From: Pseudomonadota bacterium
GTDB lineage: Bacteria; Pseudomonadota; Gammaproteobacteria; Pseudomonadales; Oleiphilaceae
Length of the DNA stretch: 64,000 nucleotides
Assembly (NCBI GenBank): GCA_051750305.1
Contig: JBNJJM010000009.1
Span: 32,188-96,187, forward strand
Direction of reading: 5' to 3'
The number at the start of each line of letters is the position of its first letter. Position 1 is the stretch's first letter. Positions 4,803 through 12,051 of the stretch are shown here, piece after piece. Made by a program: the position numbers and the translations under genes. The notes below the pieces were generated by a model, which saw nothing but the letters and a program-made list of their open reading frames with translations, searched no databases and was not told the origin of the DNA.

Positions 4803-6674
4803 ATGCTTAACAAGTACCCGCTCTGGAAAAACCTGATTATCCTGATCGCGCTGGTGATCGGGTTTATCTATGCCTTGCCCAACCTGTTTCCTGATGACCA
4901 CGCCATTCAGATTACCGGTGCCAGAAGCAGCACCGAGATTAATCAGCGTATTCTCGACCGCGCGCTGGATGCCATGGAAGCCGAAGGTATCAACGTCAAA
5001 AGCAGTGAGCTTCAGGACAGGAACGGGCTGATCCGGGTACAAAACGGTGATGACCAGCTCAAGGCGCGCCCGGTTGTCCAGGAAGCACTGGGCAATGACT
5101 ACCTGGTAGCCCTTAATATGGCACCTTCTACGCCCGATTGGCTGCGCAGCCTGGGTGCAGGTCCGATGAAACTCGGTCTCGATCTTCGCGGCGGTGTGCA
5201 CTTCCTGCTGGAGGTGGATATGGATACGGCTGTCGAGCAACGACTTGAGGCCATGTCCGGACAGATCAAGCGCGAGCTACGGGAGGAGCGTATCCGTTAT
5301 CGCGGTGGTGATCTTGACGGCCGCGAAATCACTCTCAGCTTCCGGGACGCAGATTCCCGCAGCGAAGCCTTTGACCTGATTCGTCGCCAGTACGACCAGT
5401 TCCTGATGGACGAGCAGACCGACGGCGATGAGCTGAAGATTGTTCTGTCCCTGTCGGAGCAGGAAGTGAAATCCATTCAGGACTACGCGCTGGAGCAGAA
5501 CCTGACCACGATCCGTAACCGGGTAAATGAACTTGGCGTGGCTGAGCCGCTGGTTCAGCGTCAGGGCGCGGATCGCATTATTGTTGAGCTGCCCGGTGTG
5601 CAGGACACGGCCCAGGCGAAGCGGGTTCTGGGTGCAACGGCCAATCTCGAGTTCCGTCTTGAGGCACGTCAGGATGCATCAGCGGCCGAGACGGAGTCCT
5701 TCGGGTTCCGTGACAATCAGCAGCGTACCGCCCGTCTTGAGCGGGAAGTCATTGTGACCGGTAATAACGTCTCCAACGCGCAGCAGGCCTTTGATGAAAA
5801 TGGCCAGCCGCAGGTCAATATCACCATGGATTCGGTCGGTGGTGATCTGATGAACCGTGCCACCCGCAATGCCATCCAGCGTCGCATGGCGGTCCTGTTC
5901 ATTGAATACAAGACGGAAACCAGCCAGGAGGTGGTTGACGGAGAAGTGCAAGCCGTTGAGGAGCGGGTGGTTGAGAAGGGCATAATCAGCCTTGCGACCA
6001 TCCAGTCGGCGCTCGGTAGCAGCTTCCGCATAACCGGCCTGGATTCCATACCGGAAGCGTCGGAACTGGCGCTGTTGTTGCGGGCCGGTTCACTGGCCGC
6101 CCCCATGTACTTCGTACAGGAACGCACCATTGGCCCCAGCCTGGGTCAGAAAAACATTGATGCCGGCATGATGTCGGTAGCGCTGGGCTTCACGCTGGTG
6201 CTGATCTACATGGTGCTCTACTACCGCGGGTTCGGCCTGATTGCCAACGTGGCCCTGACCCTGAACCTGATGATGCTGATTGCCTGTATGTCGATTCTCT
6301 CGGCCACGCTGACCCTGCCGGGCATTGCCGGTATCGTGTTGACGGTGGGTATGGCGGTAGACGCCAACGTGCTGATCTTTGAGCGAATACGGGAGGAGCT
6401 GAAAGCCGGGGTGCCGCCGCAGTCGGCCATCAATGCCGGTTATTCCCGTGCATTCGTGTCGATTGTCGATGCCAACATCACCACACTGCTGGTAGCGGTC
6501 ATTCTGTTTGCCATGGGTTCCGGTCCGGTGAAGGGCTTCGCCATCACCTTGTGCCTCGGTATTCTCACCTCGATGTTCTCAGGCCTGATGGTCAGTCGCA
6601 GCATCGTGAACCTGGTATACGGCGGTCGTAAGATCGGGAAGCTGTCGATCGGAGGGAAACTGGCTAATGTCTGA
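4803..6674 (+). CDS. secD: Protein translocase subunit SecD
   Basis: MLNKYPLWK, KLGLDLRGGVHFLLEVD, RNRVNELGVAEP, GMAVDANVLIFERIREE. Confidence 0.97.
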   Translation: MLNKYPLWKNLIILIALVIGFIYALPNLFPDDHAIQITGARSSTEINQRILDRALDAMEAEGINVKSSELQDRNGLIRVQNGDDQLKARPVVQEALGNDYLVALNMAPSTPDWLRSLGAGPMKLGLDLRGGVHFLLEVDMDTAVEQRLEAMSGQIKRELREERIRYRGGDLDGREITLSFRDADSRSEAFDLIRRQYDQFLMDEQTDGDELKIVLSLSEQEVKSIQDYALEQNLTTIRNRVNELGVAEPLVQRQGADRIIVELPGVQDTAQAKRVLGATANLEFRLEARQDASAAETESFGFRDNQQRTARLEREVIVTGNNVSNAQQAFDENGQPQVNITMDSVGGDLMNRATRNAIQRRMAVLFIEYKTETSQEVVDGEVQAVEERVVEKGIISLATIQSALGSSFRITGLDSIPEASELALLLRAGSLAAPMYFVQERTIGPSLGQKNIDAGMMSVALGFTLVLIYMVLYYRGFGLIANVALTLNLMMLIACMSILSATLTLPGIAGIVLTVGMAVDANVLIFERIREELKAGVPPQSAINAGYSRAFVSIVDANITTLLVAVILFAMGSGPVKGFAITLCLGILTSMFSGLMVSRSIVNLVYGGRKIGKLSIGGKLANV

Positions 6675-7620
6675 TACACAGAAGAAGCCTATAGATTTCA
6701 TGGGAATACGGAAGATCGCATCTGTATTCTCCATCGCCCTGATTATTGTTTCTATTGTCCTGCTGGCCACTCGTGGCCTGAACCTGGGCATGGACTTTAC
6801 CGGTGGCACGTCCGTTGAGCTGGAGTACCAGGAGCCGCCAGGGCTGGATGAGGTACGTGACACCCTGAATGATGCCGGTTACAGCAACTTTGTGGTGCAG
6901 AATTTCGGCTCTGACACAACAATTCTGGTGCGGATGCGCGAGTCCGGAAATGACGAGCTCGCCAGAGAAGTGACGCAAGCGCTGACGGAGTCCGGCGCCG
7001 AGCTTGAACTGGTCAGTTCCGAGTTTGTCGGTTCGCAGGTCGGCGAGGAGCTCAAGGAAGACAGCGGCCTGGGGCTGTTGATCGCCCTGGCAGTGGTGCT
7101 GATTTACGTCGGCATGCGGTTCCAGTTCAAGTTCGGAATCGCTTCGGTGCTGCCGCTGGCGCACGACGTGATCATCGTGCTGGGCGTGTTTGCCCTGTTC
7201 CAGTGGACCTTCGACTTGTCGGTGCTGGCAGCCTTGCTTGCGGTTATTGGCTACTCGCTGAACGACACCATAGTGGTTGCCGATCGCATCCGGGAAAACT
7301 TCCGCAAGCTGAGGGAAGGGGACTCCTGGTTCATCATCAACGAGTCCATCCATCAGACCATCCGGCGTACCATCAATACATCCGGTACCACGTTGGTTGT
7401 GCTGCTGGCGCTGTATTTCTTCGGCGGTGAGGCGATTAACAACTTTGCTATTGCGTTGATGATCGGTGTGGTTGTGGGTACCTATTCCTCCATCTACGTG
7501 TCAGCCAATATGCTCATGGTGCTCGGTGTGAGTCGTCAGGATCTGATGTTGCCGGCCAAAGAAGGTGCTGAGGACCAGGAAGAGGACGAGCAGCCTCCGG
7601 AATGGCTTAACCGGATGTAA
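6667..7620 (+). CDS. secF: Protein translocase subunit SecF
   Basis: GLNLGMDFTGG, IGYSLNDTIVVADRIRE, GTYSSIYV. Overlaps the secD stop. Confidence 0.97.
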   Translation: MSDTQKKPIDFMGIRKIASVFSIALIIVSIVLLATRGLNLGMDFTGGTSVELEYQEPPGLDEVRDTLNDAGYSNFVVQNFGSDTTILVRMRESGNDELAREVTQALTESGAELELVSSEFVGSQVGEELKEDSGLGLLIALAVVLIYVGMRFQFKFGIASVLPLAHDVIIVLGVFALFQWTFDLSVLAALLAVIGYSLNDTIVVADRIRENFRKLREGDSWFIINESIHQTIRRTINTSGTTLVVLLALYFFGGEAINNFAIALMIGVVVGTYSSIYVSANMLMVLGVSRQDLMLPAKEGAEDQEEDEQPPEWLNRM

Positions 7621-7636
7621 GTCCGGTTCGCGCCCC

Positions 7637-7674
7637 AAAAAAAGCCGCATCCTGAAACAGGGTGCGGCTTTTTT
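7637..7674. terminator. Bidirectional intrinsic terminator between convergent secF and suhB
   Basis: A7-GCCGCATCCTG-AAA-CAGGGTGCGGC-T6. Confidence 0.9.
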
Positions 7675-7684
7675 CGTTATGGCG

Positions 7685-8485
7685 TCAGCGGGGCAGGCGG
7701 CCACGGAAGGGGTGCAGAACCTTGAGTACTTCACGGAACAGCTTCGGGTTGGCAACCACCAGCTGACGGGCCTGCCCGGTGGACGGGTTGCCGGAGAAGT
7801 CGCCGGTCAGTGCGCCGGATTCCATTGCCAGGCTGATGCCTATGTCGAGGTCCGCGGCTTCGGGGCGGAAAATGATCGCCGCATCCAGATGGCCGGCAGA
7901 CACCCGGGCAATATCCAGTGCGACGCAGCCGGAGGTGCGGAACATGCCGGTTTCGCGGGCGATGACAGACGCCATTTCACCCCACAGCAGAGGGTCGTCG
8001 CCGCTGCGGGCCTGATCCAGCAGGTTGCTGGAGACAGCGGCCTGCTGTGTCTGCCGGATTTCACTGGTGCGGACGCGGCGGCTGTTCAGTGCGGCCCCGT
8101 GGCCGCGGCTGGCAGAGTATTCCTCGCCGGTGATCGGGTTGACCAGCAGCAGGTTCTCTGCCCGGTTGTTCTTCTTCTGCACCAGGGCCAGCGCAAAATC
8201 CGGAATGCCCCGGAGAAAATTCTCGCGCCCCAGAAGCGGAAAGATGTGCCAGCTCTTGTCACTGCCGGCGGCATCGGACTCACCCATCGGAGCGATGGTG
8301 TGATCCTTGTAGGCTTTCTCGAGCTGTTCGGTGAAATTGCCATAAATCGACGTTTCGACCCGCTCCAGTTGGCTGCGACGATCTGCGTCGTCCTTGCCGT
8401 TGGGCTCCTGTCGCTCGAAATGGGCTTTCAGATAGTCAGACCCCTGACGCGCGACGCGCAGGGCCATTTTGATTGCTGGTTGCAT
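7685..8485 (-). CDS. suhB: Inositol-monophosphatase-family protein SuhB, catalytic motifs degenerate
   Basis: MQPAIKMALRVARQG start; ASRGHGAALN, FRTSGCVALDIARVSAGHLDA, ESGALTGDFSG follow the SuhB layout. Divergent from trmJ, the canonical suhB position. DPLDGT motif reads FPLLGR. Start placed at ATG 8485. Confidence 0.85.
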   Translation of the reverse strand: MQPAIKMALRVARQGSDYLKAHFERQEPNGKDDADRRSQLERVETSIYGNFTEQLEKAYKDHTIAPMGESDAAGSDKSWHIFPLLGRENFLRGIPDFALALVQKKNNRAENLLLVNPITGEEYSASRGHGAALNSRRVRTSEIRQTQQAAVSSNLLDQARSGDDPLLWGEMASVIARETGMFRTSGCVALDIARVSAGHLDAAIIFRPEAADLDIGISLAMESGALTGDFSGNPSTGQARQLVVANPKLFREVLKVLHPFRGRLPR

Positions 8486-8668
8486 CTGAGTGTTCATTAT
8501 CCGGGTGTATGAAGGTCGCGTATCATAGCAAAAGATCACCCTCCTTGTATGTTTTTTGCCTTAGCAATGTCACGGATATCAGCGGGTTTCGGGATGTTCT
8601 GAGAGGCAAGGGCGCGGAAAAATCTGCTATCATTGCGGCCCCGAAATCAAACACAGAGACCTTGTTTC

Positions 8669-9532
8669 ATGCACAAGCCGGCACTTCCGCAGGAAGGCAC
8701 AGAGACGTTCCAGGACCAGATCCGCATCGTATTGGTGGAAACTTCCCACTCGGGGAACATTGGCGCCGTCGCCCGTGGTATGAAGAACATGGGGTTGGGA
8801 AATCTGTGGCTGGTGAATCCGGTGTCGTTTCCCGATGAGGCGTCCTATGCCCGTTCTGCCGGCGCGTCGGATGTGCTGGACAATGCCCATGTGGTTTCGT
8901 CACTGGATGAAGCCCTGGCCGATTGCGTGTTGGTGATGGGCACCAGCGCCCGCGGCCGCAAGGTGCCCTGGCCGGTAATTGCCCCGCCGGAAGCGGCTGC
9001 CAAGGCCGCGGAACATACCCCGGCGGGCCCGGTGGCGCTGGTGTTCGGTCGCGAGAATCACGGTCTGAGTAATGAAGAGCTGCAGCGCTGTCATTTTCAT
9101 ATCCATATTCCCTCCAATCCGGATTACAGCTCACTGAATCTGGCCATGGCGGTTCAGGTTGTGACCTATGAAATGCGAATGCATTATCTGCGGGGCCTTG
9201 AAGGCGGTGAGGGCAGCCCATACTTAAAGGCCATGACGGTGCCCGGTGATGAGGGGTGGGATGTGCCACTGGCGCCCGTCCATGATGTGGAAGGGTTCTT
9301 CGGGCATCTGGAGCAGGTGCTGGTGGATATTGAATTTCACCGCCGTGAGAATCCGAGGCAACTGATGACCCGGCTACGCCGCCTGTTCCAGAGGTCGAAG
9401 CTCGACCAGATGGAAATCAACATTCTCCGCGGCATTCTGACAGCAGTTCAGAAATCCGCGGGAGCAAACACCACCGGCCCCTCGGAGCCGGCCGGGAACC
9501 CCACGAGTGGGCAGGAAGAAGATCATGTTTGA
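8669..9532 (+). CDS. trmJ: tRNA (cytidine/uridine-32-2'-O)-methyltransferase TrmJ (SPOUT family)
   Basis: [51 protein letters not shown]. Start placed at ATG 8669. Confidence 0.92.
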
Positions 9533-10304
9533 GCGATTGAGGGAAGACGTCAGTAGTGTGTTTCACCGGGACCCGGCTGCCAGAAACACATTTGAGGTGC
9601 TGACGAATTATCCGGGGTTGCACGCACTGCTGTTCCACCGGTTCTCACACTGGCTCTGGAGCCTTGGTCTCAAGTGGCTGGCGCGAACGATCTCCACGCT
9701 CGCCCGCTGGTTTACGGGGATCGAAATTCACCCCGGTGCCACCATCGGTCGGCGCTTTTTCATTGACCACGGCATGGGTGTGGTCATTGGCGAAACGGCG
9801 GTCATCGGAGACGACGTTACGCTTTATCAGGGGGTGACGCTGGGTGGAACCAGCTGGAACAAGGGTAAACGCCACCCCACCATTGGTAATGGCGTTGTGG
9901 TTGGAGCCGGTGCAAAGATTCTCGGGCCTTTTGAGGTTGGCGAAGGCGCCAAGGTGGGTTCCAACTCTGTAGTCACCAAGGCGGTGCCGGCTGGCGCAAC
10001 GGTGGTCGGCATTCCCGGGCGGATCATTGTCAAGCGTAAGCCTGCCGAAGGGGATGAGGTCCGCCGTAAGGAAATGGAAGAGCGGATGGGTTTCGATGCC
10101 TACGGGGTAACCGAGGAAATGCCGGATCCCGTGGCCCGCGCCATGCGCAGTTTGCTGGATCACATGCATGCGGTGGATGACCGCATAGAGAACATGTGCA
10201 AGGCGCTTCGCAAAGTTAACAGCGAATACCAGAATGGCGCACTGCCGCCGCTGGATGAAGAGGATTTTGACTGCGTTCGGGACGAAGAGCCCCGCAACCG
10301 GTGA
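9525..10304 (+). CDS. cysE: Serine O-acetyltransferase
   Basis: [42 protein letters not shown] hexapeptide repeats. ATG 9525 overlaps the trmJ end. Confidence 0.95.
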
Positions 10305-10337
10305 ATACTTGACTGTTTTGGTGGGTCAATTCATACT
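10305..10337 (+). promoter_or_regulatory. iscR promoter with overlapping type-1 IscR operator
   Basis: TTGACT(10309-10314)-17 bp-CATACT(10332-10337). ATACTTGACTGTTTTGGTGGGTCAA resembles the type-1 IscR site ATASYYGACTRWWWYAGTCRRSTAT. Confidence 0.75.
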
Positions 10338-10381
10338 CGGCGCTGTGAATTCTGATTCATTCCCTCATCGGGGCTGAGACT

Positions 10382-10879
10382 ATGAAGCTGACCACCAAAG
10401 GCCGCTATGCCGTTACGGCGATGCTGGATCTGGCTCTCCATGGAGACCACGGGCCGGTCAGTCTCGCGGACATTTCAGCCCGCCAGGAAATCTCCCTCTC
10501 GTATCTTGAGCAACTGTTTTCCCGTCTGCGCAGGCACAAGCTCGTCGTCAGCATCCGGGGCCCGGGTGGTGGCTATCGGCTCAGTCGCGATGCGGCCTCT
10601 GTGTTTGTTGCCGAGGTAGTGGATGCGGTCAGCGAGTCCCTCGATACCACCCGTTGCGGGAACAAAGGTGACTGCCAGAACGGTGAGAAGTGTCTCACGC
10701 ATCATTTGTGGTCCGACCTGAGCGACCAGATCCACCAGTTCCTCAGTGAGATCAGCCTGGCTGATCTGATGAAAAAACGGGAAATCCAGACAGTGGCGGG
10801 CCGCCAGGACCGTCGCCAGTCGGAGTCCGATTCCCAGACTATCAATACCGAGCGGCTGAACGAACAGACGCCGGCCTGA
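10382..10879 (+). CDS. iscR: Fe-S cluster assembly transcription factor IscR (Rrf2 family)
   Basis: [34 protein letters not shown]. Cluster ligands C-x5-C-x5-C-x2-H intact. Confidence 0.96.
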
Positions 10880-10902
10880 ACCAAGTTAATCTCGATACCA
10901 TT

Positions 10903-12051
10903 ATGAAAAAGCCCGTCTATATGGATTACGCGGCGACGACGCCCGTTGATCCCGCCGTTGCCGAAGAAATGGTCCGCTACCTGACACCCGATGGCGTGTT
11001 CGGTAACCCGGCATCGCGCTCCCACGCCTTTGGCTGGCAAGCGGAAGCTGCCGTGGAGAATGCGCGTAAGCAGGTCGCTGAACTGATTCACGCTGACCCG
11101 CGGGAGATTGTATGGACATCCGGCGCGACCGAATCAGATAACCTGGCAATCAAGGGTGCGGTGGCCGGGAAGTCGGCGGCCCATGTGGTGACCTCGGTAA
11201 TCGAGCACAAGGCGGTGCTGGACACCTGTAAATGGCTGGAGGCGCAGGGCGTTGAGGTTACCTGGCTGACACCCCGTGCGGACGGTCGGATCAGCGCCGA
11301 TCAGGTTGAGGGGGCGCTTCGTGATAACACGGTGCTGGTCAGTCTTATGATGGTCAATAACGAGCTGGGTTGCGTTACCGATATCGCTGCCATTGGCGCG
11401 CTGCTGCGGGAGCGGGGCGTACTGTTCCACGTCGATGCCGCCCAGGCCGCCGGCAAGATGGCGATTGATGTGACCCGTATGCCAGTGGATCTGTTGTCAC
11501 TTTCGGCGCACAAGGTATACGGCCCCAAGGGCGTGGGTGCGCTTTACGTGCGTCGTTCCCCGGATGTGCGGATTGAGGCCCAGATTCACGGTGGCGGTCA
11601 TGAGCGAGGGATGCGTTCCGGTACGCTGCCCACCCATCAGATCGTGGGCATGGGCTCGGCGTTCGCTATCGCTCAAGAACGGCTGGCTGACGACACGGCG
11701 CTTCTGGAAGAGTTGCGCGCCCGGTTTATTGATGGCCTTGGCGGACTTGAAGGGGTGTCGCTCAATGGCAGCACCGACGCCCGTGTTCCCGGAATAATGA
11801 ATCTTTCCTTCGCCGGCGTCGATGCCGAGTCCCTGATGCTGGGCCTGCGGGAGTTGGCGGTCTCCTCCGGATCGGCCTGTGCGTCGGCGACCATCGAGCC
11901 CTCTTTCGTATTGCGGGGAATTGGCCTTGACGACGAGCAGGCTCATCGCGCCCTGCGCTTTTCGCTGGGTCGCTTCAGCACCCGCGAAGAAGTGGATTTC
12001 GCAGTTGCACAAATCATTGAAGTTGTTGGGCGTCTCCGCTCGGTGCGGTAG
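10903..12051 (+). CDS. iscS: Cysteine desulfurase, IscS subfamily (C-terminally shortened)
   Basis: [21 protein letters not shown] lysine in [10 protein letters not shown], catalytic SSGSAC. Confidence 0.92.

Follow-up and report, generated by a model that had tools for sequence, protein, structure and literature searches.

A SuhB ortholog that has lost its phosphatase site in marine and halophilic Pseudomonadales and is probably kept as a Nus factor

For ribosome biogenesis in Escherichia coli, SuhB is essential or nearly so, and in Pseudomonas it controls virulence. Which SuhB activity matters in nature has hitherto been argued from laboratory mutants only; Chen and Roberts are said to have found in 2000 that E. 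coli SuhB D87N, devoid of inositol monophosphatase (IMPase) activity, keeps its biological function. In E. coli, a SuhB dimer is part of the rRNA antitermination and chaperone complex, where its C-terminal helix docks onto the AR2 domain of NusA and where, together with NusA, NusB, NusE and NusG, it keeps the boxA-boxC RNA positioned at the RNA exit channel (PMC6614801, PMC6614797; reviewed in PMC8632103). Complementation of an E. coli suhB mutant showed that IMPase activity is dispensable and that binding to RNA polymerase (RNAP) is required (PMC6614801). The gene described here is the suhB ortholog of a Marinobacter bacterium (GTDB family Oleiphilaceae, order Pseudomonadales). It lies on a 64,000-nucleotide stretch of GenBank assembly GCA_051750305.1, contig JBNJJM010000009.1, positions 32,188 to 96,187 of the forward strand; this whole stretch is referred to as the window. 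The window SuhB has lost nearly all residues of the phosphatase site, and it probably persists as a Nus factor only.

Eukaryotic pseudophosphatases, e.g., STYX, MK-STYX and the myotubularin-related proteins, exemplify a fold selected for binding or scaffolding after catalytic loss. These proteins, however, have the protein-tyrosine-phosphatase fold, which is unrelated to the IMPase fold, and we know of no bacterial IMPase-fold pseudophosphatase in the literature. A search of the literature on SuhB as a pseudoenzyme, or on SuhB in Halomonas, Marinobacter, Marinomonas and Hahella, found no naturally inactive SuhB, and the degenerate SuhB entries looked up in public databases carry the label "inositol monophosphatase".

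The nearest solved relative of the window SuhB is that of Pseudomonas aeruginosa (PA3818; PDB 8WDQ, 8WIP and 9JFC), a protein from the same GTDB order with 32% identity and a template modeling (TM) score of 0.87. A substrate-bound structure of P. aeruginosa SuhB defines 16 active-site residues (bioRxiv 10.1101/2025.11.12.687946); this active Mg2+-dependent IMPase has all 16, the window SuhB four. E. coli SuhB (PDB 2QFL, 6IB7 and 6IB8; 6TQN/6TQO in the rRNA transcription antitermination complex) resembles the window protein in fold (TM 0.82-0.85), length and secF/suhB/trmJ neighborhood, as well as in the N-terminal helix, the R139/R141 block and the C-terminal K/R251-L254 helix, which binds AR2 in E. 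coli. The two differ in that they share 26% identity and that the window SuhB has replacements at E67, D84, D87, T89, R184 and E205 and in the K34-D38 loop, retains D212 alone among the metal ligands and scores under the NCBIfam equivalog cut-off. Set beside E. coli D87N, the window protein resembles a natural, far more extreme version: not one engineered substitution but a fully eroded site, long fixed across nine families.

The gene and the remains of its catalytic motifs are located as follows:

7685..8485, minus strand: suhB ortholog, 266 amino acids plus stop; IMPase fold, catalytic residues lost
8225..8242, minus strand: former metal-binding motif A (DPLDGT), now F82-P-L-L85-G-R87, placed by alignments
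7850..7855, minus strand: former motif B (W211-D212), now A211-D212; D212 is kept in this species, not clade-wide

The open reading frame is full length, with a 266-residue translation and zero internal stops. The protein matches Pfam PF00459 over residues 2-252 with 58.9 bits (cut-off 27) and, end to end, the NCBIfam equivalog NF008027 for E. coli-type SuhB with 97.8 bits, under the cut-off of 332; this shortfall is expected because the catalytic motifs supply much of the model score. The top PDB matches are P. aeruginosa SuhB (E 3e-34), followed by E. coli SuhB, whose chains within the rRNA antitermination complex 6TQN match with E about 5e-25.

E. coli SuhB numbering below follows the sequence identical to PDB 6ib7. 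The preliminary description of this locus, made from the sequence alone, had found that Y59 and H62-T63-I64 share their numbering with E. coli and had listed the replaced catalytic residues; both points are borne out by the alignments. IMPase motif A, D-P-[IL]-D-[GS]-[TS], which carries two metal-binding Asp residues and a Thr, is absent: E. coli positions 84-89 correspond to F82-P-L-L85-G-R87. In E. coli, T89 is the nucleophile-activating residue. The metal-binding E67 and the mobile-loop D38 are both gone: E67/E68 fall opposite M67/G68 without gaps, A65/P66 in MAFFT and a gap in HMMER, the Glu pair being absent in every alignment, and the loop K34xxxD38xVT reads A34DRRS38QLE. In place of motif B, W-D-x-[AC]-[AG], stands A-D-L-D-I, with W211 and the following AAG lost. 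In sum, D38, E67, D84, D87 and T89 have become S, absent, F, L and R, and, measured against the P. aeruginosa structure, four of the five metal-ligand side chains have gone (D38S, E67 gap, D86F, D89L); D212, D191 and E222 are retained. Metal and substrate positions are now occupied by the hydrophobic residues F82, L85, I205 and V188. FPLLGR is not a chance feature, since more than 100 Marinobacter orthologs (52-94% identity) share the replacement motif WHIFP[LVI][LI]G instead of the intact one. From these replacements we infer that binding of catalytic Mg2+ and of substrate is no longer possible, i.e., that the window SuhB is a pseudo-phosphatase.

Loss of the site has not been accompanied by loss of constraint. 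Codon alignments from 30 Marinobacter genomes, restricted to pairs with a synonymous rate (dS) of 0.05-1.5 and analyzed by the Nei-Gojobori method (NG86), give a median ratio of nonsynonymous to synonymous rates (dN/dS) of 0.088 for suhB (317 pairs), near the values for the flanking genes in the same genomes (secF, 0.085; trmJ, 0.068) and far from 1; the closest suhB pair has dN 0.008 at dS 0.75. The frame is intact in 49/49 sampled Marinobacter genomes and in nearly all of the 115 genomes of the window's family with a match. The earlier impression that the gene does not look like a decaying pseudogene is thus upheld. An AlphaFold model of the window SuhB, computed with 29 orthologs in the alignment, has a mean predicted local distance difference test score (pLDDT) of 90.8, and Foldseek aligns it to P. 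aeruginosa SuhB (9jfc/8wip) at TM 0.87, to E. coli SuhB (6tqn_T) at 0.85 and to many solved IMPases at 0.75-0.87; the model has the alpha-beta-alpha-beta-alpha sandwich fold. As an enzyme homolog that lacks the catalytic residues and is under purifying selection, the window SuhB is a pseudoenzyme.

Position and phylogeny identify the gene as the suhB ortholog. Its frame lies between secF and a divergent trmJ, the canonical slot noted at the outset. In an order-wide sample, trmJ adjoins suhB in 33/35 degenerate and 44/47 intact loci, and secF does so in 26/35 and 23/47, respectively. In maximum-likelihood trees, the degenerate sequences are nested within the SuhB radiation of the order as one clade, supported at 98-99 by the Shimodaira-Hasegawa-like approximate likelihood ratio test (SH-aLRT), with CysQ and the intact IMPase paralog introduced below falling outside the SuhB clade. 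TrmJ, an independent gene, gives a tree by which this grouping of the genomes is not rejected (approximately unbiased test, p = 0.94), the constrained tree outscoring the free quick search.

The degenerate state had been ascribed to "this lineage". It is indeed present here, but it is not private to the lineage: it is common to nine GTDB families. Scoring at E. coli positions 38, 67, 84, 87, 89 and 212 covered all 53 families of the order, each with one representative. In the 44 intact families, 46/47 sequences read D-E-D-D-T-D and one reads N-E-D-D-T-D. The nine families with degenerate SuhB are given below under their working labels, with names obtained by exact-sequence look-ups of SuhB; the fraction is that of sampled genomes that carry the intact paralog:

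f1: the window's own family (named members with degenerate SuhB: Marinobacter, Hahella, Oleiphilus, Alkalimarinus); paralog in 10/10
f8: Salinispirillum, Natronospirillum; paralog in 6/9
f17: paralog in 0/9
f19: Marinomonas; paralog in 7/9
f43: Litoribrevibacter; paralog in 3/5
f44: Kushneria (Halomonadaceae); paralog in 8/8
f45: Balneatrix, Nitrincola; paralog in 1/8
f46: Bacterioplanes; paralog in 6/8
f53: probably Pseudohongiellaceae; paralog in 7/8

These are free-living bacteria whose genomes measure 3-7 Mb. Within the window's family, SuhB is degenerate in representatives of all 19 genera read (of 21). Thirty further genomes of the nine families comprise one locus with the paralog only and no SuhB (genome G255), 28 degenerate SuhB and one intact.

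That single intact protein is informative about how the site was lost. It belongs to genome G216 (locus L151, f53) and is the only SuhB of the degenerate clade with all six scored positions unchanged (DEDDTD), yet its E205 and R184 are already altered, and it groups with the degenerate relatives of f53 (SH-aLRT 100). Elsewhere the residues form a patchwork: f19, f53 and some f8 sequences retain D84; f43, f45 and some f46 sequences retain D87; E67 persists in some f45 sequences; and f44 reads E84/H87. Mapped on the tree, R184 and the Glu that binds inositol, E205, each require a single change, which falls at the root of the entire clade, G216 included. Each metal ligand requires 3-5 independent changes, and D212 requires 13. 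The most parsimonious scenario is a single early relaxation, after which erosion proceeded in parallel. A single clean loss of catalysis is ruled out by the family-specific patchwork together with the fully intact f53 genome. The degenerate state would then have arisen in the common ancestor of a marine and halophilic GTDB Pseudomonadales clade (named members: Marinobacter, Hahella, Oleiphilus, Halomonadaceae, Marinomonas, Nitrincola/Balneatrix, Salinispirillum and Bacterioplanes), in which the substrate-site residues E205 and R184 would have changed once, with the metal ligands eroding in parallel in the daughter lineages.

A second IMPase with an intact site had been suggested as something to look for in the genome, and one is there. 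The genome holds two further PF00459 genes, CysQ and a 268-residue IMPase with intact EE, DPIDGT and WD:

contig C4 of genome G000, 383472-384275 (locus L001, 1384-2190), minus strand: intact IMPase paralog, 268 amino acids, adjoining a PAS/methyl-accepting chemotaxis gene

This paralog branches outside the beta-/gammaproteobacterial SuhB clade (SH-aLRT 100), a position that rules out a recent SuhB duplicate. It has all the catalytic residues, but P139, Q141, A248, D/E251, no L254 and a different N-terminus. It is found in 115/121 genomes of the window's family with 51-92% identity, as compared with 30-98% for SuhB there. In the order-wide sample of 301 genomes (paralog called at E <= 1e-55; counts not phylogenetically independent), 48/74 genomes of the nine degenerate families carry it versus 0/227 genomes of the other 44 families. 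G216, with the sole intact-site SuhB of the clade, is also the only sampled f53 genome without it. Among 1.84 billion representatives, the relatives of the paralog form a continuum, with 36-59% identity in full-length matches; the only named one among them is Pseudohongiella, which probably belongs to the degenerate clade itself. The paralog may have come by horizontal transfer or be ancient.

The residues that the degenerate clade has kept are as telling as those it has lost. Ninety-six positions are conserved at >=85% in intact SuhB; with a threshold of >=70% in the degenerate clade, 34 of these are kept and 35 lost. The lost set contains K34, D38, D44, E48, E67, E68, D84, D87, T89, T90, R184, A188, E205, W211 and D212. 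The kept set comprises the N-terminal M-x-P..A..A-R helix, W81, E112-H113 and the A-x-R-G-x-G-A-x-L-N-x-x-R139-x-R141 block, and further E222, G224, D229, G232, K248, K251 and L254. In the window SuhB, the three main kept segments are:

8447..8485, minus strand: SuhB-type N-terminal helix M-Q-P-A-I-K-M-A-L-R-V-A-R; M1, P3, A8, R10 and R13 are kept in degenerate and intact SuhB and absent from the paralog
8069..8113, minus strand: conserved block A125-S-R-G-H-G-A-A-L-N-S-R-R137-V-R139 (E. coli 127-141), which contains E. coli R139/R141
7724..7744, minus strand: C-terminal helix K248-L-F-R251-E-V-L254, position-mapped to the E. coli K251/L254 contact with NusA-AR2

R139 and R141 are present in 31/31 degenerate SuhB proteins and in 50/51 and 51/51 intact ones, respectively; the catalytic paralog has P and Q. 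An N-terminal MxP..N..R..R pattern and K248 are likewise shared by intact and degenerate SuhB and not by the paralog. Position 251 is K or R in all 31 degenerate-clade sequences (K23/R8), and position 254 reads L18/V8/I2/S2, with R251 and L254 in the window SuhB. Positions conserved in the degenerate clade only are few and mostly hydrophobic or structural (C187, P234, A245 and L249), and the former catalytic positions vary, their commonest residue reaching a frequency of 0.15-0.5. NusA-AR2 is contacted in E. coli by K251 and L254, and the KL251/254AA substitution causes a >1000-fold loss of affinity for AR2 and weakens the anti-rho activity of SuhB, i.e., its delaying of rho (PMC6614801). The window protein keeps, or replaces conservatively, six of the seven residues of the putative AR2 surface of P. 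aeruginosa SuhB (bioRxiv 10.1101/2025.11.12.687946); the interface mapping drew on this putative surface, from a preprint, and on the E. coli AR2 contacts (PMC6614801) alone.

The partner side is in place as well. The genome's own NusA (497 residues) ends in ...ARAPWFEDQA and thus has the AR2 WF pair, which is found in 30/30 NusA proteins checked, 22 of them from degenerate-clade genomes; it corresponds to W490/F491, on which SuhB binding by AR2 chiefly depends (PMC6614797). A perfect boxA, TGCTCTTTAACAA, stands in the 16S-23S spacer on contig C14, with the spacer tRNA genes on one side and the 23S gene on the other. On the leader side of the rrn operon, the draft assembly lacks the 16S 5' end.

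Taken together, these observations suggest that SuhB here is a pseudo-phosphatase kept as a Nus factor only, the two functions being split between two genes; we put the probability of this reading at roughly 0.78. Keeping its fold, a dimer-sized body and the NusA-binding helix, the degenerate SuhB presumably sits with NusA, NusB, NusE and NusG on rrn operons, at the RNA exit channel, and phosphatase chemistry, where needed, would be done by another gene. That the two activities combined in E. coli SuhB are divided between two genes is indicated by the fact that most members of the clade hold the intact paralog, which lacks the SuhB-specific surfaces. A natural separation-of-function SuhB had been proposed in the preliminary description. 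The low dN/dS, the shared degenerate motif, the second IMPase and the retention of K251/L254 and of the NusA WF pair all favor it in silico, the Nus role itself remaining an extrapolation from E. coli; the proposal that the protein serves as a Nus factor alone needs one amendment, a separate intact IMPase paralog that goes with the degenerate state.

Several observations weigh against this reading. The degenerate clade has evolved about 2.5-fold faster than intact SuhB (median root-to-tip distance 3.33 versus 1.34 substitutions per site), which could also mean a shift to a different partner, and its long branches could make the support for one clade look stronger than it is. In the window SuhB, R184 is replaced by T184 and G173 by S173; Wang and colleagues are said to have reported in 2007 in the Journal of Biological Chemistry that the E. 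coli substitutions R184I and G173V do away with both RNAP sensitivity and complementation. The putative AR2-surface residue H238 is P234. Degenerate SuhB is found without the paralog in 7/8 genomes of f45 and 2/5 of f43, and no SuhB homolog was detected at E <= 1e-15 in G255 (f53) or in most f17 genomes, which are reported as >=92% complete; SuhB may have been lost entirely from these genomes or have diverged beyond recognition. Since degenerate SuhB occurs without the paralog and some genomes seem to lack SuhB, the partition of functions is not obligatory. The f17 genomes without a SuhB match are G136, G185, G228, G264, G295, G353, G378 and G402.

How a moonlighting SuhB could have been split is less certain. 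A displacement, as opposed to a duplication, has about an even chance of being the right account: the ancestor of Halomonadaceae, Oleiphilaceae (Marinobacter, Hahella), Marinomonadaceae, Nitrincolaceae and their relatives would have held both SuhB and an IMPase of an unrelated lineage; E205 and R184 would have been lost first, and the metal site would then have eroded independently in at least 3-5 lineages with the Nus surfaces fixed, the one lineage without the extra IMPase having kept its metal site.

The rapid evolution, the changes at R184 and G173 and the replacement of H238 by Pro, the positions conserved in the degenerate clade only (C187, P234, A245 and L249) and the relatives that appear to do without SuhB could also be explained by a new function outside rRNA antitermination, in which the IMPase fold would sense a ligand without hydrolyzing it, or would have acquired a new partner, either protein or RNA. 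This is unlikely: the residues conserved clade-wide are nearly all conserved in intact SuhB too, the clade-specific positions, several of them in the AR2-binding helix, have a hydrophobic or structural character, the family-to-family variation of the former pocket argues against a conserved ligand site, and the WF tail of NusA AR2 is invariant.

It is very unlikely that the protein is still a phosphatase with a rebuilt site or another metal arrangement, perhaps acting on another substrate. D38, E67, D84, D87 and T89 are replaced or absent, hydrophobic F82, L85, I205 and V188 occupy metal and substrate positions, and the conservation comparison found neither a new conserved Asp, Glu or His nor an acidic cluster in the degenerate clade, against which stand the D212, D191 and E222 kept in this species and the six catalytic residues of G216. 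An intact site in G216 despite the loss of E205 and R184 means that enzymes of altered specificity may exist in the clade.

A transfer of the Nus role to the intact paralog, with the syntenic gene a leftover of minor role, is most unlikely, even though the paralog outscores the degenerate gene on the E. coli-type SuhB model (159 versus 98 bits) and evolves more slowly across the family. The higher score stems from the catalytic motifs of the paralog, which falls outside the beta-/gammaproteobacterial SuhB clade, lacks the SuhB N-terminus, R139/R141, K248, K251 and L254, and is absent from many genomes that keep degenerate SuhB. Finally, the chance that the window gene is decaying into a pseudogene or was annotated in error, as a score so far under the equivalog cut-off might hint, is negligible given the intact frames, a dN/dS on par with that of the essential neighbor secF, the confident structure model and suhB's own terminator hairpin, and the pseudogene reading is ruled out by the dN/dS and by conservation over nine families.

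If the degenerate SuhB proteins do serve as Nus factors only, a large and ecologically important marine clade (Marinobacter, Halomonadaceae, Marinomonas, Hahella) has dropped the chemistry and kept SuhB under housekeeping-level selection, which would be independent evolutionary evidence for a selected non-enzymatic role. The retained positions would mark out the functional surface, with R139/R141, the N-terminal helix and the helix that bears K248, K251 and L254. Should the displacement account be true, hundreds of species represent a natural mutational scan that parts the RNAP/Nus function of SuhB from catalysis. The co-occurring intact IMPase makes the clade a clean system for knock-out and complementation work. 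If the degenerate proteins are inactive, reconstructions of inositol and compatible-solute metabolism in these halophiles credit the activity to the wrong gene. These points bear on transcription antitermination, ribosome biogenesis and pseudoenzymes.

Around the gene, the order across 4803-12051 is secD-secF, suhB on the opposite strand, and trmJ-cysE-iscR-iscS, a typical gammaproteobacterial arrangement:

6667..7620, plus strand: secF, convergent neighbor of suhB
7638..7674, strand not assigned: bidirectional terminator-like hairpin, bordered by an A-tract and, on the opposite side, a T-tract, in the gap between convergent secF and suhB
8669..9532, plus strand: trmJ, divergent neighbor of suhB; alternative start possibly TTG at 8633

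A simple consensus scan of 7560-8720 for promoters and terminators gave no match and missed the hairpin, which was revealed by folding. It is perfect, with a plus-strand stem of 17 pairs counting the flanking A-U pairs, and its two sides carry runs of A7 and T6, respectively; the RNA folds at -30.6 and -30.5 kcal/mol on the two strands (z-scores -6.4 and -5.9). The divergent suhB-trmJ intergenic region, 8486-8668, spans 183 bp, and the simple scan found no match to the sigma-70 consensus there. The end of trmJ and cysE overlap by 26 nt. SuhB has two in-frame ATG starts (MNTQMQP... and MQP...), and database entries use either, giving 270 or 266 residues.

Single in-frame stops were flagged in a few degenerate suhB genes, at L045 (G026), L146 (G206) and L163 (G320), and may be sequencing errors or real pseudogenes; G391 (L159), likewise flagged for a stop, is cut by a contig end and was excluded from the analysis. 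A candidate Marinobacter-like degenerate SuhB reads WHIFPLLGGENF. In two genomes of one genus of the window's family (L111/L112; G028/G009, genus g10), the SuhB homolog is about 314 residues long and carries, near the former catalytic loop, an insertion of about 50 residues rich in Lys, Gly, Asp and Ala, ...GSPADKGGKAGKAAKSRDDGKAGDR....

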